Shown here one piece after another: positions 4,402 to 63,339 of a DNA stretch of 64,000 nt. Positions within the stretch are counted from its first letter, which is position 1, and the number at the start of each line of letters is the position of its first letter. Below the pieces are notes generated by a model. It ran no database searches. It was not told the origin of the DNA and saw nothing but the letters and a program-made list of their open reading frames with translations. Made by a program: the position numbers and the translations under genes. Source of the DNA: a virus (Duplodnaviria; Caudoviricetes); the IMG/VR virus record IMGVR_UViG_3300013383_000014, positions 101,724-165,723 of that record, one strand, 5' to 3'.

Positions 4402-4403
4402 AT

Positions 4404-15275: not shown

Positions 15276-15276
15276 T

Positions 15277-15305
15277 AAAAAAGCCCCGCTATAACAGCAA
15301 GGGCT
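15277..15305 (-). terminator. Terminator (T-tract on - strand)
   Basis: A6 followed by an agccccgct..agcaagggct hairpin. Confidence 0.65.
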
Positions 15306-15372
15306 AGCAATACTTAAAAATGTTTAACGTCGTTTGCCGTAGCAGCGGTCACGCTCTTTTATTATTTTATTG
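15277..15372 (-). ncRNA. Candidate ~95-nt small RNA or micropeptide transcript
   Basis: Bounded by a - strand promoter (15378-15408) and a - strand terminator; no ATG-initiated ORF. Confidence 0.35.
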
Positions 15373-15377
15373 CAATA

Positions 15378-15408
15378 CAAAGATAAGATAATATTTTTAA
15401 AAAGCAAA
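15378..15408 (-). promoter_or_regulatory. Bacteroidetes promoter, leftward
   Basis: Reverse complement reads TTTG-N19-TATCTTTG. Confidence 0.7.
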
Positions 15409-15419
15409 CACAAAATATA

Positions 15420-15451
15420 TTTGCATATATCGAATTATTTTATTACTTTTG
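15420..15451 (+). promoter_or_regulatory. Bacteroidetes promoter for the endonuclease gene
   Basis: TTTG-N20-TACTTTTG, 20 nt before ATG 15472. Confidence 0.75.
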
Positions 15452-15471
15452 CCACAAAAGTAATATGATCT

Positions 15472-16416
15472 ATGAGAAAATTAACACAAGAAAAATTTAT
15501 AGAAAAATGTAGAGAAATTCACAAGGACAGATACGACTATAGTAAGACTATTTACTCTGGGCAAAGAAATAAAGTAATAATAACATGCAAAACACATGGA
15601 GATTTTATTCAACGAGCCGGCGCTCATTTACAAGGACAAAACTGTCCAAAATGTGCTTTAGAAAATAAAGTTCTTCCAAAGAGAATCTGAAACCCAAACG
15701 CGGAAGCCCGAAAAGAAAAATTGTTAAATCAATTTGCTAAAATCCATAATGATAAGTACATCTATAAAATAGATGGAACTGAACATATGCAAGATTGTAT
15801 AATGATTGTGTGTAAAAAACATAACTATAAATATAGACAACGGCTTACGAACCATCTTCGTGGTCATGGATGTCCAATTTGTTGTGGGAAATCAAAGCCT
15901 TTTACAACAGAGGAATTTATAATAAAGGCGAGGGAGATACATGGAAACCTTTATAGCTACGATAAAGTAGAGTATACTGATAAGGAAACACCAGTTATAA
16001 TAACATGCAAGACCCACGGTGACTTTTCGCAAAAACCACATAATCATATATGCGGAGGTGGTTGTCCATTTTGTAAAAACTGAAAAATGCAACAAAAAAT
16101 TTTTGAAAAACTAAAAGAACAATTTCCAAATGAACCGTGGATTTGGGAATATACAACGACTTGGTTGGGCTTTCAAAGAGTGGATATCTTTAATCCAAGA
16201 TTGAATCTTGCAATTGAATATAACGGAAGACAACATTATGAACCAGTTGAATTTTTTGGCGGAGAAATAGAATTTGAAAAAAGAAAGTTATTGGATAATA
16301 AGAAGAAAGATTTACTTGCAGAACATAATTGTACTTTATATATTATAAAATACGACGAATATGATGAGGCAAGTTTTTTTAAAAATATAAAAACACTTAT
16401 AGAAAATGAAAATTAA
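15472..16416 (+). CDS. Zn-repeat PD-(D/E)XK (Vsr-like) putative homing endonuclease (314 aa, 2 TGA)
   Basis: Three FI....IH...Y.Y...C..H.....H..G..CP.C repeats plus C-terminal QRVDIF..LAIEYNGRQHY; fragments in frame across TGA 15688 and 16081. Confidence 0.85.
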
Positions 16417-26400: not shown

Positions 26401-29400
26401 TGATTCTGTCTTTAATGCAACTAAATTATATTTGGATGAACTTAGGAAACAATATAAACACGATGCTACTTCTGGGGATTTCAGATATAATGATGCTGCT
26501 TTAGAGTTATTTTTATCAAAAGTTGTTTCTTCTTTTAAAGAGAACGTAGGTGTTGATTATGGCTTTAATTCGTATTTTAGTAATATACAAGAAAACCCAC
26601 GTTATATGGATGGGGATGAGGAAACAAATGAATGGTTCAATTTTAAAAGTGACGTAATCAAAAAATTGGAAATAGATGAAAATAATCCAATTTGAACACA
26701 GGGAAGAATTGAAAACGGATCTGAAATAAAGCGATTGGCACAAGAGGTTTTAAATAATGTAGGAAAAAACAACGAAGCCGCAAATAATGCATACAACGCA
26801 TTACTTTCTGAAATTGGTAAAAGTTCTAGATTGCTGGAAGCTGGAAATGAAGAATATTTAAATGATTTTTTAAATTACATTTTACCAACAATTGACAGTA
26901 AAAATATACATGACATAATCACTGAGTTTGACGATTATCGTTCAAAAATCAATTACTCCGTTTTTGGTAAAATTGCACAAACAATTGGCACTGATTTAGT
27001 AAATACAAATCTTTTTGACTTAGTACAACAAGAATACCTACATTTAGCTAACTCAAATCAACTAGCTGATTATATTATTAATAGTCCAGCAATAAAAACA
27101 TCCTTTGCCAATGAAACAATTACACCAATTGTTAAAGCAATAAACGCAGTTATTTCTGGAGCGGCAGATGGAACAAATGCAGTTATTAATAATTTCAAAG
27201 AAGACGTTGATAACATGCCACATTTAGCAGAAATGTCTAAAGACACTGCCAAAATGATAGTGGCACAAGGAAATAATTTCCTTGAGCGAATTGCGTTTTT
27301 AAGAACTTTGTCTGAAAAAAACGGTAATAGGGCAGTTAAAAAACATAGAGACACTACAGTGAATATGCGTCCTAAGTTTTTAAACGCGGTACTAAATATT
27401 GCGGATTCAATAAATAAAGAACTCGGGATTGATATTAAATCGCTGTGAAATGGGCCAAATAATGTTAATGAATCTAATTATAAAGAATTTGAGCAAAAGT
27501 GCATCGAGTTTGAGCAAACTTTTTACAACGAAGTACAAAATAAATTTGGTGAAATTACTGATAAAGATAAACAAAAGAAGTTTGCAGAAAAACTTTTAAA
27601 TCTCGTAAACAAAGGAACTTTATTTAAAGCCGCATCCACAAAACTTTCCCAAAATGAGGATGAAGTTGTTAGTGAGCTTGATTTAATCTATTATTTAGCT
27701 ACAATTGGATCCGTACCAACGGAAAACTTTTATGCTGCATATAAGACGTTTTTGCCAGATAATCTATTACCAATACCTGGACATGAATTTACAATTAAGC
27801 AGGCTGTTGCACAGGCAATTAACCCGTATTTATTTAACTCGTTACTTGATGGAATTAAATCTAATGCAAATTATGATGGAATTTCTAACGTAGCTGTTAA
27901 ATATTTAAAAGCAAAACCAAATTTGCATAATCTTTCAACAATAATAGGAAGTGCCGGAACCGGTAAAACAGTTGGTGTGGTTGTCAATATAATTAAAGCA
28001 CTTACACATAATTTAGACTCCCAAATAATTTTCTTGGCCAAAGAACAAAACCAGGCCGACAGAATTATGGAAAATGCAAACGCGGGTATTGCTAAAACAA
28101 AAGCTGAGACGGTTGATGAGTATTGTACAAAAGTATTTGGGGAATCTATAAAAGATTATGAAGTAAATAAAGAAACTCACCATGTTGAATCTAAATCAAA
28201 CGTTACATCGGTTGCATCTGATTTTGATGAAACATCAAAATTAAAGTTACTTGTGATTGACGAGGTTGAGACTTTAACGGAGGCAGAACTTGAGAGAATT
28301 TGTGCGGACGCTGAGGATAATGGAATATTTGTTATTGGGGCCGGAGATCTTAAACAACCTCCGACTAATATTAATTTAGTTCCAACCGGAATTGAAGATT
28401 GCAATTTTATTAGAACACCTAGTTTATCTGTTTCTATGAGAGCTGGAGTGGCCGCCAAAGTAGAAAATGCAGACCTACTTGGAAACGCACTAGACGTTGT
28501 TTTAAACGCAGCGCAAACGAATCCTGAGCTTACTTTACGCGATAGAGATGCACTGATTGATGCAAATTTGAAGGGTGCCGAACTATATTATTACTACGAT
28601 TCAGATTCTGGTAAAATATATGGGGATATGCAAACAAATGACGATGTTGATTTTAATGAAAAAATTAAAAAAGTAATTGCACTTGATGGTGTTAAAATCG
28701 GAATTATTGTTGACTCAAGTAAAATTGCAGAATACAAAACAAAATATGATTTACCGGGAAAAGTTGATATTGTCCCATATGAGAAACGTGCTGGAGGAGA
28801 ATGGGATTATGTTTTTGTTGATGTGGATCTTAAATCTCACAACAAAAGCGTCGATGGAGTTAGTAAATATTTACTTACTCAGGACGTTTATACATTAACA
28901 CAACGTTCTAGATTAGGCACTCTTATAAAGAGTGGCGATTTAGATATGTTTACTTTTAAAAACGATCCTAACAAAGTAGACGAGGTTTCTATTCCTAAAA
29001 ATGAATCTGAAGAATTTAGAAAATGGCGTTTTGATTGTTTGGAAAATATAGCAGACGATGAAAATGCGCTAGATGCTACAGTTTTAGAATCTCCATTGGC
29101 TAACAAACCAGTAACTCCAAAATCTACGCCTACGCCAGAACCAACAAAACCAGTTGTAGGGTCAAAGCCTACTCCAGAGCCTATTATAACTTCTAAATCT
29201 GAACCAACAATTGAGTCGGTTTCAGAGCCAACAGTTGAACCAGTTGTAGGGCCAACATCTGAACCAGAAACAAGCGCTACTCCAATAGTTGAACCAGGTG
29301 AACCAACAGTTGCTACTGAGCTAGAAATAGTTGTTACAGAACCAAAAGTAGATGAATCTGAAGACAATATTAAAGAACTTTTATCAAATGTTAGAAATAC

Positions 29401-46073: not shown

Positions 46074-46535
46074 TTATTCTTCTGTTGTTTCATCTTCCGT
46101 GTAAGTCAAGATAACTTTTCTAGTTTTTGGTAATTCATTAATTTTCCCCTTATAAAAATACTTCGGATTCAAATAATATGTCGATCTATGTTTTGGATCT
46201 TTTATGATTGTTTGTGATTTTGCCAGCCCTGAAATACAGTTTCTAATCGTTTGTCTTTTTATTCCGAGATCATTTTCAATTTTATCAAAAAGTAAATCTC
46301 CTACAACTATACAATTCCCAGTCATTCCGTCATCTGGGTAAGACGAAAATTTTCACAACCAAGCTAACACTCGCAACTCCGTCTGCGTTTTTATATTCAT
46401 TATTCCGGATAAATCGTTCAGATATAAATAAATAAAATTATCTTTTGTGTACTTTCTCTCTGCCACGATTGTAGTGGTTTCTTCTAAAATTTCTCCAGTG
46501 TTGGAGTCTACTACTGTTTTCTTTTGCTCTTTCAT
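46074..46535 (-). CDS. RepL-like (plasmid replication protein family) wHTH protein (153 aa)
   Basis: VDSNTGEI N-terminus, F..LY, HTH and YYLNPKYFYKG; the two track ORFs join across TGA 46353-46355. Confidence 0.75.
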
Positions 46536-46571
46536 AATTTTTATACTTTTGTTAACTACATTTTTATACTG

Positions 46572-46603
46572 CAAATATAGTTATATTTTTTATAAAAAGC
46601 AAG
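46572..46603 (-). promoter_or_regulatory. Bacteroidetes promoter for the RepL-like gene
   Basis: Reverse complement cTTG-N20-TATATTTG. Confidence 0.7.
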
Positions 46604-46620
46604 AGTTTCTACTTTTTTTC

Positions 46621-46694
46621 GAGTATAAAGATTGTATCAATGGAGTATAAAAGTAGTGTCAATGGAGTATAAATATTATATAACTGGAGTATAA
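46621..46694. repeat. Four iteron-like 22-bp repeats (core (TG)GAGTATAA)
   Basis: GAGTATAA at 46621, 46643, 46665 and 46687. Confidence 0.9.
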
Positions 46695-46763
46695 CTTTTC
46701 ACATCAACGTGTTATATATCAGGAACTTAACTATGTTTTTCCTATATTTATATTATATATAAC

Positions 46764-46803
46764 AAAAAAATAAGGGCCATACAGCTTTCGCCATATGACC
46801 CTA
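46764..46803 (-). terminator. Terminator ending the long - strand operon
   Basis: A7 plus an agggccata..tatgaccct hairpin just after stop 46808. Confidence 0.65.
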
Positions 46804-49135: not shown

Positions 49136-50160
49136 TATTCAAAAGTTATTTTAAAAGTTGATTTAAAATCAGAATCGTTAATTATTTGATTCACTGCTGT
49201 TTGAGTAGATTTAGTCCACTTTAGTACGAAATCTTGGAACATTTCTTCGCAACATTTAGCATCATCATCACTGTGCTTTTTCTGTTTTGTGTAATTTGAA
49301 ATACAACCAATTGAATAAAAATTAGTTTGCCTTATATCGGTGTTTTTGCGAAATTGTTTTGTAGCAGTTGATTGCCACTCAGGAAGCATTTTAATACGAT
49401 TATAATTAAGTCCCAATAACATATTAACAGAAGCCTGCATTGGTTCCATGTTATAATTGCTCAACAATCTAATGCCTAGACCAATACTGTCTTTATCAGA
49501 AGACTCAATAAGTGCCTTTATCTGGTGGAAAATATTATAATTGATTGCATCAAGACCTCCAGTAATAAGTTTGTCTAATTGTTGATCAGTTATAATATTG
49601 GTTGTTTTACCATTTAATACATCAATTAGCAGATCTGGAGTACTTGTGTGAAATACATTATAATTATAACTATTTATAATTTCAGAAGAAAATAGTGCAT
49701 CTTTATATTTCTTGATAAAATTATCAAGATTTGCATATTCTTTTCTGTATTTATTCCAATAATTTCCAGAAAAATAGGCATGACTTTGAAATAAGTAATA
49801 TTTATCCTCAGTTTCAATTATTTTGCTAAAAAATTGATTTTCTATAGCAAAATCCTTAATAACTATAAAATCAGCTTTTTCTTTTTTAATGCATCTTTTA
49901 TAGCTAGTTTCTGCCAATTTAAAACGTGGAAATTTTGATGACTTATCAAACAAAAACACAGCGCCATCTTTCGGTGACACTGTGTTTATTTTTTCATTAA
50001 TTTTTGCTGTTAATTCCGTGAGTGTAGCGTCTGATGCTATTAATTTATTGCAATTATATCTTCAAGTAATACTACGATGACTAGGATCATGAACAACTGC
50101 GTCAAAATCACAATAACTATAAAAAGTATAAACTGGTTTGTTTAATAAAAAAATATCCAT
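49135..50160 (-). CDS. Hypothetical protein, paralog A (341 aa)
   Basis: ATG 50160 overlaps the ATPase TAA; TGA 50062-50064 read through. Confidence 0.8.
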
Positions 50161-51386
50161 TACAATATTTTATTTCTAATTTTAGCATTTAACAAAAGTT
50201 TGTTAGTTCTTGCTTTATATTTGCCTACGAGTTGTTTAATAATATCAAACAAGAAATCCTCAGAAAAGAGCATTTTCTTATCTGGGTCATCATTTGTGTC
50301 AATAAGATCAATAAGACGCTGTTCTACAACATCTGTTTTTGCTCCTTTCTGCTCGAAATAATACATGGAGTAGTTAAGAAGTCTGGTGTGTAAAATACTA
50401 GCTACCAATGGTTTATAATTACCGTTGTCATCATATACACATTTCTCGATTTTAGGCGCAACTTTCTTCCAGTCTCCTGTTAAGAGTTCTTCTGGAGAAA
50501 TAAGTTTATCAAGTTTATTTGCAATAAAATTGGTGAAAAGAGTTCCAATTGTGTTGTCTTTATCATCTAGGAATGCACCAGATGCAATTTGCAAAATAAG
50601 AGCAAGACTTTTTGGGTCTTCCCAATTTTCAATTCCCGAAATAGTGTTTGCAAACATCGTGTAGTTTCTAGCATTAACTGGATGTCTATGTTGTGCGTTT
50701 TCTTTCATTATTTCGCTTGAGTAGGCAAGCATAAAATTTTGAGCTCGATCATCAAGTCTGGCGTTTTCTGCATATCTCGCCCAACTATTAACATCAAATT
50801 TTACATTAAAACGCATAAATCTTGTCGCGAAAGCCTCATCATAGCCGTTTGTATCATAATTTCCATCATCTGGATTTTCTGTTAAAATAATGGTAGAGTT
50901 TGGCGGTAATTTCCATGAAATATACTCCTGACGACAGATAATTTCCATAACTGCCTGCATAATAGCTTGGCTTGTACGGTTATAATCATCTAACAAAAGT
51001 ATCGTCGGTTTATTAAGATCCAATCCTTCAATCCACGCTGGCACAGCATAAGACATCCTGGTTTCTGGGGTAATTGTCCATCCGTTTGCCGTATAAGCGT
51101 CGATAAGTTTTGCACTGATCCAATCGCACTCATCACCACGGCAAACGTGATATTCCTGATATGGCCAGCCAACAATTTCTGACGGGTCTGTCAATTGACT
51201 GAGATTCAAACGTATATAATTAGAGTCAATTTCTTGTGCTATTTGTTCACAAACTTGACTTTTACCTATCCCGGCAGCTCCACATAACGAAATTGAAACA
51301 GGAGATTGTCCTTTTTCTTGGAGTGCTCTATTATTCTTAATTATATAACGCAAAACGTCTTTTGCTTCATCTAGTGTTAATTCCAT
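50160..51386 (-). CDS. MoxR-like AAA+ ATPase
   Basis: GAAGIGKS, LLLDDYNR, LTENP, D.AF.TRF, NARNY; adjacent to a VWA gene. Confidence 0.9.
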   Translation of the reverse strand: MELTLDEAKDVLRYIIKNNRALQEKGQSPVSISLCGAAGIGKSQVCEQIAQEIDSNYIRLNLSQLTDPSEIVGWPYQEYHVCRGDECDWISAKLIDAYTANGWTITPETRMSYAVPAWIEGLDLNKPTILLLDDYNRTSQAIMQAVMEIICRQEYISWKLPPNSTIILTENPDDGNYDTNGYDEAFATRFMRFNVKFDVNSWARYAENARLDDRAQNFMLAYSSEIMKENAQHRHPVNARNYTMFANTISGIENWEDPKSLALILQIASGAFLDDKDNTIGTLFTNFIANKLDKLISPEELLTGDWKKVAPKIEKCVYDDNGNYKPLVASILHTRLLNYSMYYFEQKGAKTDVVEQRLIDLIDTNDDPDKKMLFSEDFLFDIIKQLVGKYKARTNKLLLNAKIRNKIL

Positions 51387-51387
51387 C

Positions 51388-52560
51388 TTATTTATTTTCT
51401 TTTGGTATTTCTATTACAACGCCTGGGTATTCTTGATCTGCGTGATTGGACGTTAAAACCCAGACAACATTACGTCCGTTTAAGTTATTAATATCAACAA
51501 AACCATCAGTGAACATTACGAGTGTAGAGAAATCTTTTTTATGCTCATCTTTGTACGCCCACAACTCCTCGAATGAAGTTCCTCCACGACCATTTATTTC
51601 ACCGTCAAAATGACCTTTATATTCGTATATTCTATTGATCCGTGTATCAATTTCGGCTATTGTTACTTTTACTCCACTTTTCCACAAGTGGTTTATTTCG
51701 GAAAAGAAATCTAGCAATTCATTGTTAGACACACTGCCTGATGTATCTACTCCAACTAGTACACTAGGCTTTCTTTTCATTTTAATGCCCTTAGCATCAG
51801 GAAATCTCCTACTAGGGCGCATTTTAGTTAAAAGTATTTCAGATGTTATCATATTACCGATAACTCTTCTGAAATATGCTTTCCAATTAAAAATCTGCGG
51901 CTTTACTACAAAAAGACTATCTATATATTCTTTAAACTGTCCCGGTATGTTTCCACACTGTTTCATCACTTGCTCTGCTGTGTTCTTTGCAAGTGTATCA
52001 ATTTGGTTTTTAACTAGTTGTTTTTCTGCCTCTGAAAGATCGTCTGCTTTTTTCCAAGTAGAATGATCGTCGATTGTTTTTTGCTTTCCTTTTCCTTTTT
52101 TACTTTTATTTCCTCTAGACCCATTGCCAATACCACTTTTGTCATTCTCTCCATCATCTTCTGGTTCTGGGAGATTTTCATAATAAAATTTGGAACCCAT
52201 ATTATTTTGGAAACCAAACCTAGCAGGCCATACATAAGGGTCTTTTTGTAGTACTGGGATATTTCCGTTCACTTCGCAATCACAACTCAAGTTAAACCTT
52301 TGTTTATCTGTGAAGTCCTTTCCCATAAGTAGGTGATTATAAAGCAGATGGGAAATTTCGTGCATTAGTACTCCAGTTTGTTCTTCATCGGAAAGTCCAT
52401 TCCAAAATTCCTCGTTAATCACCAATTCACAATTTATGCCATTTATTCCAACGGCTGCCGTAGGTACTTCATCGGTGAAATATCTATTCAACCCAAGCAA
52501 AAACAACCCATAAAAAGGTTCCTTAACGATGAGGGATTTTACACATTTGTCAAGTGTCAT
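51388..52560 (-). CDS. Metallopeptidase-VWA protein (DUF2201-like)
   Basis: HEISH; MIDAS DTSGS; GRGGT; FTDG. Confidence 0.9.
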   Translation of the reverse strand: MTLDKCVKSLIVKEPFYGLFLLGLNRYFTDEVPTAAVGINGINCELVINEEFWNGLSDEEQTGVLMHEISHLLYNHLLMGKDFTDKQRFNLSCDCEVNGNIPVLQKDPYVWPARFGFQNNMGSKFYYENLPEPEDDGENDKSGIGNGSRGNKSKKGKGKQKTIDDHSTWKKADDLSEAEKQLVKNQIDTLAKNTAEQVMKQCGNIPGQFKEYIDSLFVVKPQIFNWKAYFRRVIGNMITSEILLTKMRPSRRFPDAKGIKMKRKPSVLVGVDTSGSVSNNELLDFFSEINHLWKSGVKVTIAEIDTRINRIYEYKGHFDGEINGRGGTSFEELWAYKDEHKKDFSTLVMFTDGFVDINNLNGRNVVWVLTSNHADQEYPGVVIEIPKENK

Positions 52561-52565
52561 TTTTA

Positions 52566-52766
52566 TTAATCTTTCTTCTCAGACTCTACTATTTGTGCTT
52601 CTTCTGTAAAATCTGGTACTATATTCATATATTTAAAAAAGTGATTGGCAACCGCATTAACACCGCCATTTGCAGCAAAATATGCCTGTAACAAAACGTC
52701 CCGGGTTGCATTCTCCGGGACGTTCAACTCGTTATCAAAACGACTATATGTAACTATATATTTCAT
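52566..52766 (-). CDS. Hypothetical protein
   Basis: Intact ORF coupled to thyX by TAATG. Confidence 0.65.
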   Translation of the reverse strand: MKYIVTYSRFDNELNVPENATRDVLLQAYFAANGGVNAVANHFFKYMNIVPDFTEEAQIVESEKKD

Positions 52767-53953
52767 TATATCAGTTCTTTTGCTTCAAACTGGTTCTTTA
52801 AGTCAATTGCCAATTTTTGTATATCTGGGTGCGCTCCCTTCGCTGTTCTAAGTTCAAAAAAGTGCATCCAATCAGAAATAAAACCGGTATATATAACTTT
52901 TGTTTGTAGATCAAGTGGCAATATACCACGTGCTTCCTGTGGCTTCATTTTATGCCCCTCCTCTGTAGTAGTGAGGTACATATAATCCTTTTCTATATTT
53001 GCAAGGCAATCCCAATAAGCAGCAACACTACGATCTTTGCAAGTTAAATAACGTATAAGACTATTTCCTTTTGCGTTTGCAAGATCTTCATCTCTAAGCC
53101 CATCGGGTCCAGCATATTCTGCTAGTTCATCACGTAATTTATATGCCCACTCAGGTACAATAAAAGTCAGTTCGTTTCCAAACTTGTCTTTCGAGAAATT
53201 GCAGTAGCGGGAGCTCATTTCTACTATGCCTAGAGTTCTTGAACGATTCCACTCCCTGGAAATCCCTATGCTACAATTAGTTACAACAGTAGCTCGTTTT
53301 TCATGGAAATCACTAGGCTCATCCAGATAACAGAGATCTTCAAGCCAGTTATTTTCAATCAAAACTCGCATATTTGTAGTTATGCAATAAAAAGTAGTTG
53401 GACCCTGTTTCTTAACAATTTCTCTCCAATATAGTGGTGCATAGTTATATACACCAAAAGTCTTTATAGATACTCTAGAGTAAGGATTTTCGAGATATTT
53501 CTCTGCAATTGTTTGCCTTTTATCGTACTTTCCAAAAGGAATAGCAATTGTAAGATAAACACAACCAAACTCAGTTGGAGTAAGATGTCCTGCATTTTTA
53601 AGTTTTTCCACAAACTTTTCTGCCGTAACATTCTCGTAATAAGGGCAGGTTTCAAGGGTTTCCTCCTCTGCACAACTAGTAAGTTCTGGATAAAAAACAA
53701 CTAGTGCATTTGGGATCGACACATAATAACAATGGTCGAAAAAGGCACCTTGTTTTATAACTACTTGTGGATCGTCTTTTAGTTTGTTAATCAACTCCTG
53801 CGTATTCGCGTTTTTAAGGTCATCTGGAACGCAAAAATATCTTGTCCCAGTACTCTGATAACTATAGCGTCCGGCCCTCTCTATGTCCTCGTAAATGCCC
53901 TTTAACGAGGTATGTGTTTCGACTAGGGAAACACTACTATCCACAAACTTCAT
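52766..53953 (-). CDS. thyX: FAD-dependent thymidylate synthase (divergent)
   Basis: RSR-x7-SRYC, PQEARGILP, W.HFF.LR, AHPD; likely start MKFVDS. Confidence 0.85.
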   Translation of the reverse strand: MKFVDSSVSLVETHTSLKGIYEDIERAGRYSYQSTGTRYFCVPDDLKNANTQELINKLKDDPQVVIKQGAFFDHCYYVSIPNALVVFYPELTSCAEEETLETCPYYENVTAEKFVEKLKNAGHLTPTEFGCVYLTIAIPFGKYDKRQTIAEKYLENPYSRVSIKTFGVYNYAPLYWREIVKKQGPTTFYCITTNMRVLIENNWLEDLCYLDEPSDFHEKRATVVTNCSIGISREWNRSRTLGIVEMSSRYCNFSKDKFGNELTFIVPEWAYKLRDELAEYAGPDGLRDEDLANAKGNSLIRYLTCKDRSVAAYWDCLANIEKDYMYLTTTEEGHKMKPQEARGILPLDLQTKVIYTGFISDWMHFFELRTAKGAHPDIQKLAIDLKNQFEAKELI

Positions 53954-54101
53954 CGTTAAAAATAAGTGAGTGTGAGTATCCATCTTCGCGTGGGTACATT
54001 GCGTCGAGCGTATTCATCGCCTTGAACTTATCTTCGGCCTCTATTGTTAAAATATGCTCTATTCCAGTTCTTTTAACTCGAAATTGAAATTTACTTTTCA
54101 T
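53937..54101 (-). CDS. Hypothetical protein (54 aa, below track cutoff)
   Basis: [20 protein letters not shown] fills the gap between thioredoxin and thyX. Confidence 0.55.
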   Translation of the reverse strand: MKSKFQFRVKRTGIEHILTIEAEDKFKAMNTLDAMYPREDGYSHSLIFNDEVCG

Positions 54102-54351
54102 TGAGTTCTTTTATCTTGTTATAAAATGTTTCTAGAGAAATATTTCCAACGGTTCTACCGAGTTCTTCGTCTTTCTCGTTAAGAAAGAGTAGTACCGGTA
54201 TATTGCGTATTTTATATTTCTCGCAGATTTCTTCATTTTCATCTACGTCCAATTCTTCGATTGGAACGTCTGTTACTTGCTTAAGCATCTCAGAAAGTGC
54301 TCTACAAGGTGCGCACCACTCTGCACCTAGCTTCAGAACTTTATTTACCAT
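54091..54351 (-). CDS. trxA: Thioredoxin
   Basis: WCAPC, DVDEN, IRNIP. Confidence 0.92.
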
Positions 54352-55574
54352 GCGTATAATTTATATTGATTTGCAAAATAGTTAACTTCGTTTTTTATAT
54401 TTTGAGGGTTTTCTCCAGAAAGAGCCCTATTTATAAAACGAGCAATTAACTCCATATCTTTCATTCCCCGAGTAGTTATTGCAGGAGTACCCAATCTGAG
54501 ACCAGATGTCTTAAAAGGTGATCTAGTGTCTCCTGGAATCATATTTTTATTAACTGTTATATCACATTGTCCAAGTATTGTTTCAGCGTCTTTCCCAGTC
54601 ATATCAGGATATTTTGTGCGCAGATCAATCAGAAAACTGTGATTGTCGGTCCCTCCTGTAATTATGTGAAAACCAAAATCTTGCAGTGATTGCGCTAGAT
54701 TTTTTGCATTTTTAACTACTTGTTTTTGGTATTCAACAAACTCTGGAGAAAGTGCTTCTCCGAAACAAACGGCTTTTGCGGCAATTGTGTTTTCGAGCGG
54801 ACCACCTTGATTCCCAGGAAAAACAGACGAGTTAATTCGTTTGCTCATAAGTTTTCCTTCATATTCGAAATCTTCTCGCATCAAAATAATTCCACCACGA
54901 GGGCCTCGTAGAGTCTTGTGTGTTGTGGAGGTAACTATATCAGCATATTTGCACGGATTTATCAAAAGGCCAGCAGCAATTAAGCCAGCAGTATGTGCCA
55001 TATCAAACATCAATATTGCTTCAGATTGTTTTTTGGCTTCCAAAAGCGCTTCGTAACCCCACTCTCGTGAGTAAGCAGATGCACCAGCAATAATCATTTT
55101 TGGCTTTATTTTGCGTGCTTTATCAATAAGTTCATCATAATCGACAATCCCATCTTTCGTAGAACCGTAGGTTTCAACGTTATAATACTTTCCTATGTAA
55201 CTAACTGGAGATGAATGCGTTAGATGCCCACCACAATTAAGATCTAGTGCAAGTACAGTATCTCCAGGATTTAGTACAGCTTCAGTAACTGCTCTATTTG
55301 CTTGGCTACCAGAGTGTGGTTGCACATTTGCGTAAGAACAATTAAAAAGTTTGCATGCTCTATCTATTGCTAATTGCTCGATTTGGTCTATAACTCCGCA
55401 ACCGCCATAATATCTATGCCCAGGATATCCCTCAGCATATTTATTTGTGCAGACAGATCCTAGTGCTTCATATATATCATCTGAAACATAATTTTCAGAG
55501 GCAATTAATTCTATGCCATTTAATTGCCTCCGAGTTTCGTCTTCTATAAGATTTTCTATTAATTTATCCTTCAT
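54345..55574 (-). CDS. glyA: Serine hydroxymethyltransferase
   Basis: [56 protein letters not shown]. Confidence 0.98.
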
Positions 55575-56166
55575 TTTTAGCTATTTTATTTAGCTTGTAC
55601 TTGTATAAAATCTCATCAGTACGTTTCTTTAAAAGATTGTACTCTGGATTGAAATAATCATAAAAAACCTTTTTAATGTCATCATAATTGGCTCTACTAA
55701 GCGCATTGTGTGCATTGCCAAGCACGTTATAATTGACGATTTTATGGTTTTCTATAATTTGGTTTGCGAAAATGCAATATTTAATTGCTTTTAAGGATTG
55801 CTGTTTTTCAGACGGAAATTCTGTTTCACCAATTTTATTTAACTGTATATCAACACATTGCCTCAATTGCAAAAGATCGGTCTTCATAAGGAGTTTTACG
55901 TGCTCTTTAATAACGTACTTTTTATTCAAGCAAGCACATTCCCAAGCGAGTATATCACCATTCATAACTCTCAAAAACCAATCGTTTATGTTAATCGCGC
56001 TATAATTAAAATCAGCATTTAAGAGTTCTTCTGGTCTTTTAAAATCCTCAGTAACAATAAAAAGATAATAATCTTTATCGGGCTCTATTCCATATAAACT
56101 ACGAGGGAGTCAATAGATATATAAAATATCTTTATTCTCCTTTAATTTGTTAATTACACTATTCAT
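55564..56166 (-). CDS. Hypothetical protein (200 aa), possibly a degenerate nucleotidyltransferase fold
   Basis: ATG 56166; TGA 56110-56112 read through; IY...RSLYG....D....IV weakly resembles the polbeta-type N-terminus. Confidence 0.55.
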
Positions 56167-56452
56167 CCTTGTGTATATTCATATCTCCATAATAAAAACA
56201 ACCGCTTATAACATAGCCAGTATATTTATTATCTTTCCATATATAACTCCAAAAATCAAGCTCCCATCCATTTATTTCAAGAGCACCACAATTTGCATCT
56301 TCTTTTGATTCGGAAATTGTATAACCCAGTTCTTCAAGCGCTTCTCGTAGAGTAGCAAACGCAACATAATTAAGATTGCACTCTACAAGGCCATTTTCTT
56401 TAAAATATTCTACAATTTCTTCTCTTGTAGGGGAGCCTTTTATTTCTTCCAT
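56159..56452 (-). CDS. Hypothetical protein
   Basis: Intact ORF, coupled on both sides. Confidence 0.7.
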   Translation of the reverse strand: MEEIKGSPTREEIVEYFKENGLVECNLNYVAFATLREALEELGYTISESKEDANCGALEINGWELDFWSYIWKDNKYTGYVISGCFYYGDMNIHKDE

Positions 56453-57492
56453 TAGTTTTCGTCCTTTTTATAAAATTTACTTGTTTTATCGTGAGGGTTT
56501 CCAATATATTTTGGAATAGTATTTTTTCTACTAAACATATATTCGTGTGCTATATGTTGTCCATCATCCAATAAACACATGGATGAGATTCTGCCATACG
56601 ACACACCAGTATATAAGCTGGCTTCCTTTAGAGTATTAAAATGTCATATTAATTCTCCATTTGCATTAAAAACATTTACTCCTTTTTGTCGAAGAGGGCA
56701 ATTTGATTTTTTATAGTTTATACAAAAGTTGTGTTTTTCTGAACTTCATTTTCTATTTAATTTATAAATTGGAAGATTATAAAAGTGTTCAAAAATTCGT
56801 CGGGCATTTTTGCAGCTTATTGTATATGTGCAGGTGTTTCTCTTAAATTTTTTATCATGATGTAATTTAGATGTACTATTTCCTAGAATTTCTTCAAACC
56901 GATTTTTAACAAATGTTAAAACTTCTGGCGTCCCGACAAGACTTATATATAATATTTTTTGTCTACCTTTTGGTGTTGAAAAATGAATACTACCATCTCC
57001 ATCAATCAGTCCTATAATATACGCATCGATAAAAGTTTCGTCTACCAGATTCGGTGATTTTAATGTATAAGATTTAGCGTTTGTTATATTAAAATGACTG
57101 TATAAATCTGAGACTATCTGTTTTGATTTTACATCTAAATAAATTGAATTTTTGGAGCTAGGACGAAGTGTGTAATTGGTTTCTAAGCTATTTAAAAATT
57201 TTTGTAAATGCGTTGTATCTTTTCTAGATAATCCAATTATTAATCTAGACTGATCTTTCGAGATGTATCCGTCTGCTGCTATAAATCCTGCTCAATAACA
57301 ATTTTCAAGCGTTAACTCTGTAAAATAATTATCCTTTATATAATAATTTGGTTTATGGACAGGTATATTATATTTCCTCTTATATCGACTTAATCTTGTG
57401 TGTGTTCCGAATAAAATCTTTTGCGCTTCTTTTTCTGTTACATTGTTTGTTTTTGCATAAACAATGATTTGTTCTACCATTTCTTTTGTCAT
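56452..57492 (-). CDS. Double-motif LAGLIDADG homing endonuclease with C-terminal NUMOD1-like domain (346 aa, 3 TGA)
   Basis: Y-W-AGFIAADG and YIIGLIDGDGS; TGA at 57292, 56746 and 56644; TAA 56452-56454. Confidence 0.92.
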
Positions 57493-57517
57493 ATTAAATA
57501 TACTTTGAATTGAAATT

Positions 57518-57549
57518 CAAATATAGCAATATTTTAAATAAAACGCAAA
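57518..57549 (-). promoter_or_regulatory. Bacteroidetes promoter for the LAGLIDADG gene
   Basis: Reverse complement TTTG-N20-TATATTTG. Confidence 0.75.
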
Positions 57550-58911
57550 TTAATTTATGTCTTCTATATTAACAATTCCCTTATCTAAACATGCACTTGT
57601 ACCTTGAATGAACGAAAAGGTTTTTAACTTCCAGGCTCTTGCAATCATATCTTCTTTCTTTATAACAACTCCCTCCTGTGGTACTGGGTTGTTACAATCA
57701 GGTGAATTTGCTTCCATATAGAAAGATTTATCATTGGCCATTTTATCCCAGAACATATCATTCCAAGTTTCATAGTCACCTTTATCCCAGCCGTATAGAT
57801 TGCCGGCAAGACCATAATAAAATTCAGTTACCGGTGTTAATCCATTGTTATGACACCATTGTTGTACCTCTCTAGCAGAAAATTCGTGAGCTATTCCATC
57901 AACATTTGTTATGGTTATTCGATAAACTCGTACTTTAAAATGCTTTTCATGAGTATATTCCTCGCCCCCTTTAGGTGGCACGCATCCATAATCATAACCA
58001 TTCTGTATAAAACCACCGTTTGGTAGGAAACCTACGATTTCTGCATATATGTGCATGCCTTTAATAAGATGTGGTCGTAAGATTTTATCAGCCTCTGCCC
58101 AAACATCACAATCATAATAACCGCTATTTAGATGTGCGTTATAATTGGCATTTTTAATAACCTTTCTAGAGTGATATATATAATCGTAAAATACTGGTTC
58201 ATTGTGAGTTAGGCGATCATATATTCTCTGGAAGAAATTACGCTCTTTCTTACAGAGAAGATATGCAGATCCAATACTTGTGCCGTGAATTTTGGAAGTA
58301 ATTGATATTAAATCAGTTGGCTGTATAAACCATGGTTCCTTCTTTACCGTAATTGTCTCGTAATGGAACTTAAACTGTGTATCGAGTATTTTATTGTATT
58401 TCTTAACTTTCTTACGTAGATGATAATTGTTTCGTTCTGAAAATTTTCTTTCAACTACATATTTCTTACAGATCCAAAAAGACTTTTTATCCTTTTCAAC
58501 AGTATCGAACTCAATATTATCAAGTGGTTCAATTGTTTCGTTTATATTATCCTGCAAGAAAGCAGCAAATGCATCAAACGGCAAAAGAAATCCATCAGAA
58601 ACTACTCCACGTAATTTTATTGCTTTTACACGTCCATTATCCTCAAAAAAGCCAGAAATTGTTGGATTGGAATTTTTATCACTATGCCTATATAAGTTAC
58701 AGTAACCCAATAAGTTAGGGTTAATCTTACAATTAGTAGGAAAATATATATAATATCCATCTGCCTCATTCAATCCTACACAAATTTCATATCCGCCAAC
58801 TCTAGCAATTTTCATTTTATCTGCGTTGGGGTGTGGATGCCACTGTGTAATATTAACTATTTTGGCAAGATAATTAATATCACCATTTTTGTCTTTTGTT
58901 AACGCTAGCAT
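57550..58911 (-). CDS. RNA ligase, DRB0094/Rnl5-like
   Basis: N-terminal HPNADK OB-type domain; SKIHGTS, YAEIVG, EGVVIK, KLK. Confidence 0.85.
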   Translation of the reverse strand: MLALTKDKNGDINYLAKIVNITQWHPHPNADKMKIARVGGYEICVGLNEADGYYIYFPTNCKINPNLLGYCNLYRHSDKNSNPTISGFFEDNGRVKAIKLRGVVSDGFLLPFDAFAAFLQDNINETIEPLDNIEFDTVEKDKKSFWICKKYVVERKFSERNNYHLRKKVKKYNKILDTQFKFHYETITVKKEPWFIQPTDLISITSKIHGTSIGSAYLLCKKERNFFQRIYDRLTHNEPVFYDYIYHSRKVIKNANYNAHLNSGYYDCDVWAEADKILRPHLIKGMHIYAEIVGFLPNGGFIQNGYDYGCVPPKGGEEYTHEKHFKVRVYRITITNVDGIAHEFSAREVQQWCHNNGLTPVTEFYYGLAGNLYGWDKGDYETWNDMFWDKMANDKSFYMEANSPDCNNPVPQEGVVIKKEDMIARAWKLKTFSFIQGTSACLDKGIVNIEDIN

Positions 58912-59147
58912 ATGTTATAAATATATTTTTTATCACCTTCACCATCAAATATAAAGCGTTCTATATCAGCCGCTTTTACGTACCCAAATTCATCAGAAAA
59001 TATACAGTTCAGCATATAAAAATATTTTGCATATATTTCCTCTAAAATTGGATCACTTTCTATTTTGCTAGTAAGGCCATTAATATCAAACGAGTCCTGG
59101 ATCTGTACTGCCAAATCCAGGACTTTTCTATATGTTTTTTGTGTCAT
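58905..59147 (-). CDS. Hypothetical protein
   Basis: Intact coupled ORF. Confidence 0.65.
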   Translation of the reverse strand: MTQKTYRKVLDLAVQIQDSFDINGLTSKIESDPILEEIYAKYFYMLNCIFSDEFGYVKAADIERFIFDGEGDKKYIYNIC

Positions 59148-59587
59148 TAATTCAAACCAAAACTCCTCAAAATATCATCATCGTCATTGTCAACATTATA
59201 AAGCCTGCGGATTTCATCACAGAACTTGTGTAAATCGTGCATCATTTCTACGATTTCTCTACTTTCGTACTTATTTTCCCACTGGATAAGTGGCGCAACA
59301 AGATCTCCAGCTTTTAATGTAACATCATCATAATGTTCTGGTAACAACGAGATAAAACAATCAATCATTCCCCAAGTAGTGGAACGAATTTCAGTACAAA
59401 CATCTCCAATAAAAACAACATCATCTCCTTTTGGAAAAAGGTTTTCTATAAATTGAGAGTTGTGTTTGTAAATTGGTGGTCTATCAAAATTGATTCTCCT
59501 TCTATAATCACCGTCTTCCTGGTCGAATATGCCTTTTATTTTCGCTATTCTAGGAGCTTTTGTTAAATCATTGTAATCTAGTTCCAT
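59147..59587 (-). CDS. Hypothetical protein
   Basis: ATG 59587 overlaps the ligase TAA. Confidence 0.7.
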   Translation of the reverse strand: MELDYNDLTKAPRIAKIKGIFDQEDGDYRRRINFDRPPIYKHNSQFIENLFPKGDDVVFIGDVCTEIRSTTWGMIDCFISLLPEHYDDVTLKAGDLVAPLIQWENKYESREIVEMMHDLHKFCDEIRRLYNVDNDDDDILRSFGLN

Positions 59588-60780
59588 TATATATCTTTTT
59601 CTAAACGAACAGCCTTTCAAACTGGCTGGAGTGGTACACCATCGTCAGACAGATAAAAATACGTACAGGTTGCTGGTCTACCTTTTATCTGACTTTCAAA
59701 ATTGGCATACAAATCATTTTTAACTTCACGAGAACCCATTGGTTTCGCCTTAAATTGCTTCCCATCAGCAGTTTCCATAACAAAAACCATATCTTCAATT
59801 CCACGTAAACCTAGTTCAATTCCAATTGTCTTAAATTCAGAGTCTAGTCTAGATTTTAACTTAATCATATCTCTGGCCCCTGGATTGTACTTTTTATTCG
59901 GATCTCGCAATACAGCACCCTCTCAGCCTTCAGAGACGTACTGGTCATGCAATTTCCACATCAATTTTTCATCGTTCGGAATTTTAACTTGTGGTAGCAT
60001 CTGTACCATTAATTCATCATCTCCAAAGGTTTTCTCTGGATCAAACCCTAAATTGAGTTCCTTTTGGATCTCTTGTAGGATTTTATATCTTTCTTCAAAA
60101 GTCTTTTCAGTGTCTACAATATCATAAATATAATATTGCAACTTAAAAGGCAATTCTCCATCTTCGAGTCTTGCGCACCCAGATAAATTTTGTAGGCTCT
60201 TTCCAAAAACAAAGAGTTCTCCATCTGTCTGTATATCAGGATGTTGCCTAAAAAACTCTATAAATTTAGGATGATTCCTTATATGTGCTGTAGCGTAATC
60301 ATAATTGCCACCTCCTCTTGACGCACTACGTACTTGTGTGCCATCCCAGTAGAAGAGATTTCTCGTTCCGTCGATCTTTTTACTTATGTATCAATGAGTT
60401 ACACGACTAAGAGCACTTTTTGAAACGTTTTGAATTAACTTGGCCAACATCGGTTTTACTGCACCTTGTTGGTCTTGTTTTGTTTTAGGTACTGCCTTTT
60501 CTATATCATCTGGCATTGTGTCGAAAAGTTTATATCCCTTATCCAGATAACTCTTTACGTTGGAATTATACTCCAGTTCTGCCTGTTGTTCCAGTGTTCG
60601 TTTTACTTTTCCTTTGTCTATTACAATTTTAGGGTGGTCGACAAATTTACCACCAACAATGCCGGACTTGCGTGTTATTTCATAACTACTGCCGGACTTA
60701 TAACAAGAAATATTTATCTGTCTAATCTTTCCCTTTGAATCTCGTGTTAATAAAATGTTTGACTTACCAAAATCGCTCAT
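59587..60780 (-). CDS. ATP-dependent DNA ligase (397 aa, 3 TGA)
   Basis: KPMLA, W-YISKKIDGTR (motif I), DGEL, YDI, EG-W-EGAVLR (motif IV), MIKLK; TGA at 60391, 59923 and 59617. Confidence 0.93.
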
Positions 60781-60907
60781 AATTACAAACTGCTCTTTCT
60801 TCAGATTTTCCGGAATCATATCCTTTCAGATATGCCTCATCTATCAAGTTTTCTACGGTTTGTTTTTGTGCTGGAGTCAAACTACGAAAAAGTTCTTTCT
60901 TAGACAT
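60764..60907 (-). CDS. Hypothetical protein (47 aa)
   Basis: MSKKELFRSL..EAYLKGY..FW-TAA fills the gap. Confidence 0.5.
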   Translation of the reverse strand: MSKKELFRSLTPAQKQTVENLIDEAYLKGYDSGKSEERAVCNYERFW

Positions 60908-60917
60908 ATAAAATATA

Positions 60918-61418
60918 TTAAAATTCAGTTGCCAAAAGTTGTTTTACAAGAGCAAGCTTCTTAGGCTCCTGCATATAACGCACATACAATACCCAGAGAA
61001 GTTGTTTGTTTGTTATACCAGGATAATACACATCACCAATCTTTTCCTCAAAATCGATCGGCACTGCATCGGTACCAAGGATTGCATTTCCAGCATGCTT
61101 GGATAATTCAAAATAGCGATTTCCTACTGAATAAACATCTTTTGCAACCATTTGTGGCTCAGGATATTCCTCAGATGTATAAGTTATAGCATTTTCCTTT
61201 GGTTCGGGCTCTTCTGGCTTTACTACATGCACATAGCCGTTACAAGACTCAGCATCGTCTCTCTTTTCAATCTTCTTTTCGGCTTTCTTTTGTTCATCGG
61301 CCTTCTTATATGCATCTTTTACATAATCTTTACATTCGTCTTTTAGAGCCTTAATATCCTCTTTAGACAATCCAAGCACATTAAAAAGCTCGGACAAAAT
61401 ATCATTTTCTGTGTACAT
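60918..61418 (-). CDS. Hypothetical protein
   Basis: Intact ORF. Confidence 0.7.
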   Translation of the reverse strand: MYTENDILSELFNVLGLSKEDIKALKDECKDYVKDAYKKADEQKKAEKKIEKRDDAESCNGYVHVVKPEEPEPKENAITYTSEEYPEPQMVAKDVYSVGNRYFELSKHAGNAILGTDAVPIDFEEKIGDVYYPGITNKQLLWVLYVRYMQEPKKLALVKQLLATEF

Positions 61419-61426
61419 ATTTTATT

Positions 61427-61870
61427 CTATTTACCTGTTGATCCAAAACCACCTTCTCCACGATCTGTTGCACGGAGTTCTGTTACTTCGCTAAACTCAA
61501 TTGCACCTGTTATATCAAGATGAATCTGTGCAATGCGATCACCTACATTATATGGCTCCCCATTAGGATTTACTTTATAAAAGCAGCACATAATTTCTCC
61601 AACGTACGATTTGTCGATGGTACCCAACGAGTTACAGAGTTGGAGTCCGGTTTTATATATGCTACTCCTAGGACGAACGGTGAAACCAGCAATTACATCT
61701 CCATCACCTTTATCATCTATTTGTAACGCAAGTCCAGTACCATATCTGAAAACTCCAGGAGCAATCTCTTCTTTACTAGTGGCAACAAGATCATATGCAA
61801 AATCATCAGCATGTGCTTTCGTTGGCACAACTGCCTCTGGTACAAGCTTTTTAAAATTAACTTTAATCAT
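61427..61870 (-). CDS. dut: Trimeric dUTPase
   Basis: YDL, PRSS, GTID.SY.GEI, RIAQ, RGEGGFGSTG; start MIKVNF. Confidence 0.97.
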   Translation of the reverse strand: MIKVNFKKLVPEAVVPTKAHADDFAYDLVATSKEEIAPGVFRYGTGLALQIDDKGDGDVIAGFTVRPRSSIYKTGLQLCNSLGTIDKSYVGEIMCCFYKVNPNGEPYNVGDRIAQIHLDITGAIEFSEVTELRATDRGEGGFGSTGK

Positions 61871-62063
61871 TTTTAATATATAATTGACAACAGCATTTAT
61901 CCCTAAGTCTATAACTTTCGCAAGGACAATGCAGATCTCCATCATTTTCTTGGTGCGAACACGGGCACTCTCCGTTATTTTTCTCTATGCGGGTAAAAAT
62001 CGCATTTACTAGTTTATCGTTTGGGTTCAGAGACCAACCAGACTTTCTAAGAATTGTTATCAT
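61863..62063 (-). CDS. Ferredoxin-thioredoxin reductase catalytic-subunit-like protein
   Basis: LNPN..CPC..CPC..CCCQLY cysteine pattern. Confidence 0.8.
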   Translation of the reverse strand: MITILRKSGWSLNPNDKLVNAIFTRIEKNNGECPCSHQENDGDLHCPCESYRLRDKCCCQLYIKND

Positions 62064-62544
62064 GTTTCCAAAATTGTGATGTTTCGTCTCTCCAACCGGG
62101 CCCAATCGTGTAGTTACTATAAAATATACTATACTCGTAAAATCGTTGATTGGTAGTTGGACTAGTAAGAGGCCCTTTTTCTTCTATATAAGGTCCGAGT
62201 TTTATATAATCCCAGTTATATAAGTTGATTTCTTTCGAGAGTTCCTGTTTTCCAGAATACCAACCTGTTTTAACACCAAAAAATCGTAATTTAACGAATC
62301 TAGCAAGTTCGTCTATATATGCTGGGTCTTGGTCACCACCCATGAAACCAACACAAGTAATACCACTATTCGCATTTATAAGACGTTCTAGCTCTTCTTT
62401 TGTTAGTTCTATGCCAATATCATCAGCCAAGTAAGACGAGTGGCAATTTTTACACCCTTGTTTACAACCTGATATATTAATACAAAGTGCTATTTCCTTA
62501 GGAAACTCTCTAAGGCCGATCAACGTATCTACATATTTCAACAT
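62047..62544 (-). CDS. nrdG: Anaerobic ribonucleotide reductase activating protein
   Basis: SGCKQGCKNCHS radical-SAM motif, FMGGD, IKLGPY, TTNQRFY. Confidence 0.9.
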   Translation of the reverse strand: MLKYVDTLIGLREFPKEIALCINISGCKQGCKNCHSSYLADDIGIELTKEELERLINANSGITCVGFMGGDQDPAYIDELARFVKLRFFGVKTGWYSGKQELSKEINLYNWDYIKLGPYIEEKGPLTSPTTNQRFYEYSIFYSNYTIGPGWRDETSQFWKHDNNS

Positions 62545-63226
62545 ATTTTCTGAGATGATTAATTGTTGTTTCTGGTAATATAAATTTTTTTAACAGAATT
62601 TCAAGATATTCTCTATCGAGTTCCATTTTAAAATTTACAGCATCTGTGAATATTTTAAAATTTTTGTTAATCTTTTTATTAACTCGTCTAGAACGAACAC
62701 AATACGTATTATGCTTTGTTTTATAAATACCGTGCCCGAGCGTACTTAGAAATGTATTTATAGTTTTAGGGATCAAAATACATGTTTTTTCTGAATAACA
62801 CTTTGGGTAGATGCCCTCAATTTCGCAGATACAATCTTTATCTATATCACAACTATATTCCAATTTGTGTTCTGTGAATCACCTTTTAAAATTTGAATAA
62901 TATTTAAAATACTCAGAAACATATACGCCTTTTGCACCGTAGTTGGAATAACCATCTATATCTTTATAATAGCATCTCCGCTCTATATTCTTTCATATAA
63001 AATATATTGAAGTATCCACATTTCTGGCATCACAAACAAAACCAAATGCGTCTGGTTGATCAATGTTCTTAATTAGTCCGCTTTTTATTTCGTCTAATCG
63101 TTGAACATACTTCCGGGTGTATCCATCAAAATGACAATCATATAAATATCTATTTCTAACCTTTGTAGTGGATTTACTGTCTATAATTAATCAATCGCCA
63201 CAATTTTGTAGATATTTTTTTACCAT
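62510..63226 (-). CDS. HNH-related phage endonuclease (238 aa, 3 TGA)
   Basis: Y..W.....RCY...Y..YG.KGV.V..NF..W..DKD..YS..TC..IP..IN; TGA at 63191, 62993 and 62879. Confidence 0.8.
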
Positions 63227-63339
63227 AACAACCAATTAAGCCACAACACATAATAATCTTTAAAAGCCTTTGCGTCATCTGGAAGTACATCAAACAGATA
63301 ATATGCCCAGATAGCTTTTTTATTCCATCCAGCTCCCAT
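63220..63339 (-). CDS. Possible 39-aa Trp-rich peptide
   Basis: MGAGWNKK..WLNWLLW-TAA fills the gap. Confidence 0.35.
   Translation of the reverse strand: MGAGWNKKAIWAYYLFDVLPDDAKAFKDYYVLWLNWLLW

Follow-up and report, generated by a model that had tools for sequence, protein, structure and literature searches.

Why do some genes of a recoded gut phage use TGA freely as a tryptophan codon, while others on the same strand use none? We addressed this question for a block of genes at positions 50160-63235 of a 64,000-nucleotide stretch of phage DNA (the window), which corresponds to positions 101724-165723 in one phage contig of 165,723 bases, referred to below as G0. In G0 long frames open when TGA is read as tryptophan, and the block genes, all of which lie on the - strand, were read in this way and named by their Pfam and PHROGs matches; tryptophan codon counts are given as TGA/TGG. 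The original prediction was that TGA is selectively placed in nucleases and DNA ligase within an otherwise TGA-free block, serving as a per-gene timer that holds back DNA-cutting and DNA-joining enzymes while metabolic genes work under the host code. Our comparisons indicate that it is the avoidance of TGA, and not its placement, that needs explaining, and that the two resulting classes of gene are probably accounted for by translational gating through a suppressor tRNA together with the demands of protein yield.

The three TGA-rich genes of the window named in that prediction are a free-standing LAGLIDADG + NUMOD1 homing endonuclease (56452-57492; Pfam LAGLIDADG_3, LAGLIDADG_1 and NUMOD1; 3/0), an HNH homing endonuclease (62510-63235; PHROGs phrog_953, E 2e-17; 3/0) and an ATP-dependent DNA ligase with a nucleotidyltransferase-family adenylation domain (59587-60840; Pfam DNA_ligase_A_M, E 4.6e-16, whole profile covered), which has 4/2 in the longest open reading frame (ORF) and 3/2 from Met21, the start used by relatives. 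The genes named as TGA-free are a MoxR-like AAA ATPase (50160-51386; Pfam AAA_5/bpMoxR; 0/8, as also in an ortholog of 55% identity in the related genome G1), a DUF2201 metallopeptidase + VWA-like protein (51388-52560; Pfam DUF2201_N and DUF2201; 0/7), the thymidylate synthase ThyX (52766-53983; Pfam Thy1; 0/6), an RNA ligase (57550-58911; 0/9) with a PHA02142 OB fold and an RNA_ligase domain, both Pfam matches falling just under the curated cut-off, and serine hydroxymethyltransferase (SHMT, GlyA; 54345-55574; Pfam SHMT, E 5e-149; 0/2), the TGA status of which is uninformative because it has too few tryptophan codons. All of the earlier counts of TGA among tryptophan codons were correct and the annotations hold, with three in five for the DNA ligase when read from Met21. 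The block is not otherwise TGA-free, since a 208-aa gene at 55564-56190, which carries 1-2 TGA, had been overlooked.

Across 16 block genes TGA use is strongly heterogeneous (G=46.4), and 0/100,000 permutations reach this value (p <= 1e-5), which bears out the claim that it is set gene by gene and not only by strand or arm. A Fisher test on the functional classes of the original prediction, which are post hoc, gave p=2.7e-8. Composition is not the cause, because neither GC content at third codon positions (GC3) nor the A-ending share of Lys, Glu and Gln codons separates the gene classes, in agreement with the expectation that AT content would not explain the pattern. GC3 is 0.24-0.30 across the block genes, with 0.27 in MoxR (0.80 A-ending) and 0.30 in the DNA ligase (0.62 A-ending), and the A-ending share is 0.78-0.85 in MoxR, VWA and SHMT. 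From gene-specific A-ending shares, the probability of zero TGA in the 32 tryptophan codons of the five named TGA-free genes is ~1e-18; three of three, three of three and three of five TGA in the two endonucleases and the DNA ligase are ordinary at A-ending shares of 0.85, 0.77 and 0.62.

To compare these genes with their homologs we used relatives retrieved from a phage collection, in which a megablast search with the block gave no match. A scan with MoxR alone led to one relative, and a two-sequence alignment of the RNA ligase led to 80 related loci, six of them TGA-recoded within the fetched region; two of the six, L017 and L020, share 97% identity, and L071 lies in a different gene context. 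Four complete genomes of 168-177 kb were fetched, namely G1 (IMGVR_UViG_3300021400_000028), G2 (IMGVR_UViG_3300021255_000060), G3 (IMGVR_UViG_3300021387_000091) and G4 (IMGVR_UViG_3300021255_000128). Families were defined as reciprocal best hits against G0, at 25-70% amino-acid identity, with counts pooled over the genomes having the gene, and MT835492.1, which looks TAG=Gln, and MT835470.1, which looks standard-code, served as controls in which TGA is not Trp.

The TGA class of each gene family is conserved across these five diverged TGA=Trp genomes, so that the pattern of the block recurs in four further recoded phages. The TGA-free families include RNA ligase (0/37 in five genomes), ThyX (0/16, over three genomes), MoxR (0/16), dNTP (deoxynucleoside triphosphate) diphosphohydrolase (dNTPase; 1/31) and a RecE-like exonuclease (phrog_412; 1/32 in five genomes), and the lone TGAs of the last two fall in N-terminal ORF over-extensions. 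Over all 80 loci RNA ligase has 0 TGA against 553 TGG, and in its tree the TGA=Trp genomes form one supported clade. The TGA-bearing families are RNase H (32/6), primase (24/8), an SNF2 helicase (21/8), DNA ligase (16/6, with TGA in all five genomes), a DnaB-like helicase (9/4), NrdD (22/23) and deoxynucleoside monophosphate (dNMP) kinase (11/8), and NrdG varies by genome (0/4, 2/2, 5/0 and 0/4).

As a neutral yardstick we took the A-ending share of two-fold purine codons (Lys/Glu/Gln). It can be seen that endonuclease-like ORFs have a TGA share of 0.83 (34/41) against an A-ending share of 0.82, and the replisome set including DNA ligase one of 0.75 (117/155) against 0.80 (p=0.16), whereas the TGA-free set has 0.015 against 0.75; late genes lie between, at 0.47-0.64 against 0.69-0.79. 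Because the TGA-rich genes sit at the neutral A-ending level, TGA cannot be said to be placed in nucleases and ligase as first proposed, and the signal is avoidance elsewhere.

We considered whether this avoidance reflects selection or history. At conserved tryptophan columns of the permissive families the codon differs in 41% of genome pairs, where independence expects 47.6%, indicating that switching between TGA and TGG is near saturation at this divergence; even L017 and L020 already have one DNA ligase column with differing tryptophan codons. In the TGA-free families 191/191 pairs are TGG-TGG, yet synonymous turnover at conserved Lys, Glu and Gln residues is equal in both classes (0.34 in TGA-free and 0.31 in permissive families). 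RNA ligase tryptophan residues have been gained and lost between lineages, and every new one is TGG. From these alignments we conclude that the TGA-free class is under purifying selection against TGA and is not short of time, and that permissive genes drift to the neutral level of the genome, ~75-83% TGA. The intolerant class comprises RNA ligase, ThyX, MoxR, VWA, dNTPase, the RecE-like exonuclease, much of the early region and the capsid protein; the permissive class includes homing endonucleases, DNA ligase, primase, the DnaB-like and SNF2 helicases, RNase H and, in the relatives, a family B DNA polymerase (PolB).

These comparisons bear on three other explanations. That the pattern is due to chance or local AT content is as good as dismissed: although the two endonucleases are the most AT-rich block genes (GC 0.29), the permutation p is at most 1e-5, MoxR, VWA and SHMT all exceed the DNA ligase in A-ending share, and in the relatives genes of GC3 0.16 with 0/9 adjoin genes of GC3 0.17 with 9/0. 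A more substantial proposal, though still an improbable one, is that enzymes which cut or join DNA are actively given TGA as a lock on each gene, and that metabolic genes are kept readable by the host. It agrees with the identity of the three TGA-rich genes of the window, with the presence of TGA in DNA ligase in 5/5 genomes and with the report of an intron endonuclease family preferring TGA (Borges et al., bioRxiv 10.1101/2021.08.26.457843), but the TGA shares of endonucleases and replisome equal the neutral share, with no excess, and three tryptophan codons per endonuclease cannot tell 100% from 80%. Nor does a split between nucleases or ligases and metabolism hold, since the RecE-like exonuclease is TGA-free in five genomes and the metabolic genes NrdD, dNMP kinase and NrdG carry TGA. 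The gene-level contrast of the original prediction is upheld in the relatives, where DNA ligase always has TGA and RNA ligase, ThyX and MoxR have none. The closest homologs of both block endonucleases, at 46-48% identity, occur in L088, a relative in which, across the 12 kb covered, TGA is not decoded as Trp and TAG may be decoded as Gln. These homologs use TGG only (0/3 in the HNH homolog), so both endonuclease families cross code boundaries.

The third proposal, a lag after transfer, holds that TGA-free genes are recent arrivals from standard-code bacteria or phages that have not yet acquired TGA. In its favour is the family A DNA polymerase of G0 (PolA; G000:C1:17697-19718; 0/11), a homolog of which is absent from the four TGA=Trp relatives G1-G4 and which resembles, at 42-48% identity, polymerases from relatives that do not decode TGA as Trp. 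At the syntenic site G1-G4 have instead the divergent PolB (G1: G001:C1:131806-133707; 35/7), which gave no Pfam match; its profile matches E. coli Pol II with E=0.005, and DIE, SMYPS, KLxxNG and NTDG motifs occur in the consensus. SHMT is likewise found only in G0 among the five genomes, being absent from G1-G4, and its best cellular relatives are metagenome-assembled genomes of Bacteroidales (62-63%). For the class as a whole, however, a lag is very hard to sustain: RNA ligase, ThyX, MoxR, the exonuclease and dNTPase are common to diverged TGA=Trp genomes, and these genes have saturated synonymous sites and a GC3 that has adapted fully (0.13-0.21 in the relatives), yet carry no TGA; the RNA ligase tree has a single supported TGA=Trp clade, and new RNA ligase tryptophan codons are always TGG. 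We dropped PolA as an example of a replication enzyme kept TGA-free once the TGA-rich PolB had been found at the same site in relatives.

What, then, could make TGA costly in some genes only? G0 encodes a tRNA(tca) with a normal cloverleaf as drawn by ARAGORN (genome c[28249-28322]) and four other tRNAs, all on the - arm, and tRNA(tca) is also found in G2, G3 and G4. Binned at 5 kb, each of these four genomes shows a TGA-poor stretch of 20-40 kb that ends downstream at the tRNA(tca), with the TGA-rich replisome following immediately and TGA-free genes appearing again further on. The host is inferred to be a standard-code member of the Bacteroidales from the affinity of SHMT and from the literature, Bacteroidetes being hosts of crAss-like phages (PMC7886860). 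In such a host TGA would terminate translation until the phage suppressor tRNA accumulates, so that TGA would be unaffordable for proteins required ahead of the switch or in the greatest quantity, and TGA-bearing genes would be expressed only after it. We found no strong - strand terminator inside 50160-63235, which suggests that TGA-free and TGA-bearing genes are probably co-transcribed and that discrimination between them would act at translation. A sigma-70 promoter scan stayed at shuffle level (95 found and 84 expected). The Bacteroidetes-type promoter consensus, TTTG-N20-TAnnTTTG, was not enriched in the window (7 found and 3.9 expected), and in neither scan was a promoter class tied to TGA status. 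Taken together, suppressor-tRNA gating of translation, combined with yield, is in our judgement the probable explanation for a selected TGA-free class beside a neutral TGA-bearing one.

Yield could also act by itself. If suppressor decoding were always slow or leaky, through competition with release factor 2, products required in high amount or at full length would avoid TGA whatever their timing. The major capsid protein, a late product, is TGA-free in all five genomes (0/33 pooled), late genes fall below the neutral level, and no phage factor acting against release factor 2 was found in the five genomes. On the other hand, RNA ligase, ThyX, MoxR, the exonuclease and dNTPase are not obviously more abundant than primase, the helicases or RNase H, the TGA-free enzymes have the same GC3 and A-ending use as their TGA-bearing neighbours, and the ending of the long TGA-poor region at the suppressor tRNA in four genomes points to temporal order. 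We therefore regard yield without timing as rather unlikely.

The combination of gating with yield nevertheless has to contend with several observations. A timer cannot act alone, since the major capsid protein, a late product, lacks TGA; yield or the cost of read-through must count besides timing. Timing and yield are inseparable as causes of avoidance in these data, and expression timing is read from genome layout. The TGA-free genes of the block lie downstream of both tRNA(tca) and the replisome on the same strand, so for them an order in which promoter-proximal means early fails. ARAGORN did not detect tRNA(tca) in G1, which has the same TGA pattern. Neither a release factor nor a class-Ib tRNA synthetase, the family that includes TrpRS, is encoded in any of the five genomes, and the code switch would thus rest on the tRNA alone. 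Finally, the TGA-free state of the G0 PolA is most likely the result of replacement of PolB and not of selective maintenance.

Gating combined with yield might have a further consequence, which we put forward tentatively and regard as more doubtful than the gating itself, namely that in this clade the code switch gates the start of DNA replication and not lysis or assembly only. If so, the suppressor tRNA would separate, as a checkpoint, host takeover and dNTP supply from replication, and TGA decoding would be needed for the entire replisome (primase, two helicases, RNase H, DNA ligase and, in the relatives, PolB). The host-readable proteome before the switch would then consist of RNA ligase, the RecE-like exonuclease, ThyX, dNTPase, MoxR/VWA and the early region. 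The neutral yardstick, applied to five diverged genomes, shows which genes of a recoded phage must stay host-readable, and it yields a testable list of pre-switch proteins, consisting of RNA ligase, exonuclease, ThyX, dNTPase and MoxR/VWA. By the same measure, a high TGA share is what selfish endonucleases show by default, and it does not point to design. Annotation of these phages requires code 4, their replication genes included.

The assignment of TGA to tryptophan is supported by alignment with relatives. In-frame TGA codons of G0 fall at Trp in 53% of aligned positions, followed by F and Y, and the profile of TGG is identical; in relatives that do not decode TGA as Trp, the positions of the DNA ligase TGAs hold TGG or an aromatic residue. 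Since TGA aligns with W, F and Y exactly as TGG does, TGA=Trp stands. Among 84 ortholog-supported genes the stop codon is TAA in 57 and TAG in 27, a tally that follows from calling ORFs with only TAA and TAG as stops, and the only TGAs inside TGA-free families sit near the N-terminus, never at ortholog C-termini. Along genes of the replication arm TGA is shifted slightly towards the N-terminus (Kolmogorov-Smirnov p=0.01), which is put down to longest-ORF over-extension, as in the DNA ligase, the exonuclease and dNTPase. The base 3' of TGA is A somewhat more often than that 3' of TGG, although the effect is small.

G0 has a GC content of 0.35 and a direct repeat of ~75 nt common to both contig ends. 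Its + arm (genome 47-147 kb) carries the structural genes as well as giant proteins (2805, 3069 and 1531 aa), and its - arm (147-165.7 kb, continuing at 1-46 kb) the early, replication and nucleotide-metabolism genes. The block fits the far end of this replication and nucleotide-metabolism arm in a putative Zeta-type crAss-like phage. Zeta-group crAss-like phages were described by Yutin et al. 2021 (PMC7886860), and a family Echekviridae has been proposed (PMC12386605). As in that group (PMC7886860, PMC12386605), the genome is ~166 kb in size with two opposed gene blocks, the structural arm ends in giant proteins, replication and dNTP-metabolism genes are plentiful, there are many homing endonucleases and split genes, the code is TGA-recoded, TAG-recoded or standard by branch, and PolA and PolB are swapped. 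The fit comes from this size, layout, gene content and code variation; the sole crAss-specific Pfam match is weak, being Crass_capsid in one exon of the capsid gene (E 1.6e-4, 20.6 bits against a cut-off of 27). The Atlas gave crAss_AuxCP with a score of 0.80, which is a lead only.

Both this type of pattern and the timer model have already been published, and the present case is a refinement and not a discovery. Borges et al. (bioRxiv 10.1101/2021.08.26.457843; later Nat Microbiol 2022) proposed that recoding acts as a post-transcriptional timer, with early proteins encoded in the host code and later ones in need of the suppressor. In their phages replication genes are variably recoded, the recoded codon is enriched or depleted per gene family by selection, and the TGA-preferring intron endonuclease is expected to be delayed. 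Our genomes resemble those recoded gut phages in reading TGA as Trp, in the probable standard-code host, in the tRNA(tca), the TGA-free early region and the TGA-rich homing endonuclease, as well as in having families enriched or depleted in the recoded codon and variable recoding of replication genes. They differ from the crAss-like and Agate examples of Borges et al., where the replisome is in standard code, in that the whole replisome is recoded, and further in that the endonuclease TGA share is neutral and not preferred, and in that a conserved TGA-free set is interleaved with TGA-bearing genes on what appears to be a single transcription unit.

In phage T4, homing endonucleases such as I-TevI are delayed by late promoters and translational repression. 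As with I-TevI, an endonuclease lying among early or middle genes would here be made late under post-transcriptional control; in contrast to the RNA structure and late promoters of T4, the delay would come from a suppressor-dependent codon, and as a by-product of neutral TGA content and not a demonstrated adaptation.

The LAGLIDADG endonuclease also behaves as expected of a mobile gene, a homolog following the RNA ligase in L020 and being absent from that site in L017, the RNA ligases of the two being 97% identical. Interrupted genes occur elsewhere in G0. NrdD is split into an N-terminal half at 5442-6752 and a C-terminal half at 3299-4243 (G000:C1:3299-6752), with a GIY-YIG endonuclease gene (4402-5298) between them and an HNH_3 gene (2725-3297) next after. 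A second LAGLIDADG gene (G000:C1:14273-15139) adjoins a short DnaB-like helicase piece (15186-15812) of 208 aa, compared with 370 aa in G1, and the helicase may therefore be interrupted. The crAss-type major capsid gene (G000:C1:95697-98110, ~3.6-6.0 kb ahead of the window) consists of three pieces in G0 and of 3-4 in G1 and G4; its gaps look like introns, and one intervening stretch contains a 202-aa ORF. For most of the TGA-free late proteins PHROGs and Pfam gave no names.

Other genes of the block include a thioredoxin (54091-54351; Pfam Thioredoxin; 0/1), an unknown 97-aa gene (56159-56452; 0/3, pooled 0/8), a dUTPase (61427-61945; Pfam dUTPase) without tryptophan codons and the NrdG-like radical-SAM activase (62047-62544; weak Pfam Radical_SAM/Fer4_12 matches), the 0/4 of which is accompanied by 2/2, 5/0 and 0/4 in relatives. 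The unknown 208-aa gene has two TGG besides its 1-2 TGA, with 0/4, 0/2, 0/4 and 1/2 in relatives, and N-terminal alignment suggests that the TGA at codon 4 probably lies upstream of the true start. In ThyX, which has 405 aa and a long N-terminal extension, the Thy1 profile covers residues 231-400 only, from profile position 59, which leaves the N-terminal 230 residues outside the match. The DNA ligase is matched by 645 phage records in a tblastn search. A single instance of the Bacteroidetes-type promoter pattern (57518-57549, - strand) lies directly upstream of the LAGLIDADG gene.

Some features of the tRNA and early regions are also of note. In G1, what ARAGORN draws at the position syntenic with the G0 suppressor (G001:C1:142354-142431) is a Leu-like tRNA whose anticodon loop has 8 nt (taag). 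In G2 it calls, besides tRNA(tca), a tRNA whose TTA anticodon would decode TAA (G002:C1:83959-84033), the codon that serves these genomes as their main stop. The clearest exception in the TGA-poor early region of G0 is a 154-aa ORF (G000:C1:37705-38169) with 5/0 and a weak DUF659 match. Near tRNA-like genes in the TGA-free early region lies a DUF2828/DUF7788 (Ro60/TROVE-like) protein (G000:C1:42629-44026); this protein and the TGA-free RNA ligase may belong to an early module for RNA repair or RNA handling. Within the window, four copies of a TTATACTC(CA) repeat with ~22 bp spacing (46575-46800) lie upstream of a RepL-like gene (46074-46574), and the repeats and gene, bracketed by strong terminators, look like an iteron-type origin cassette.

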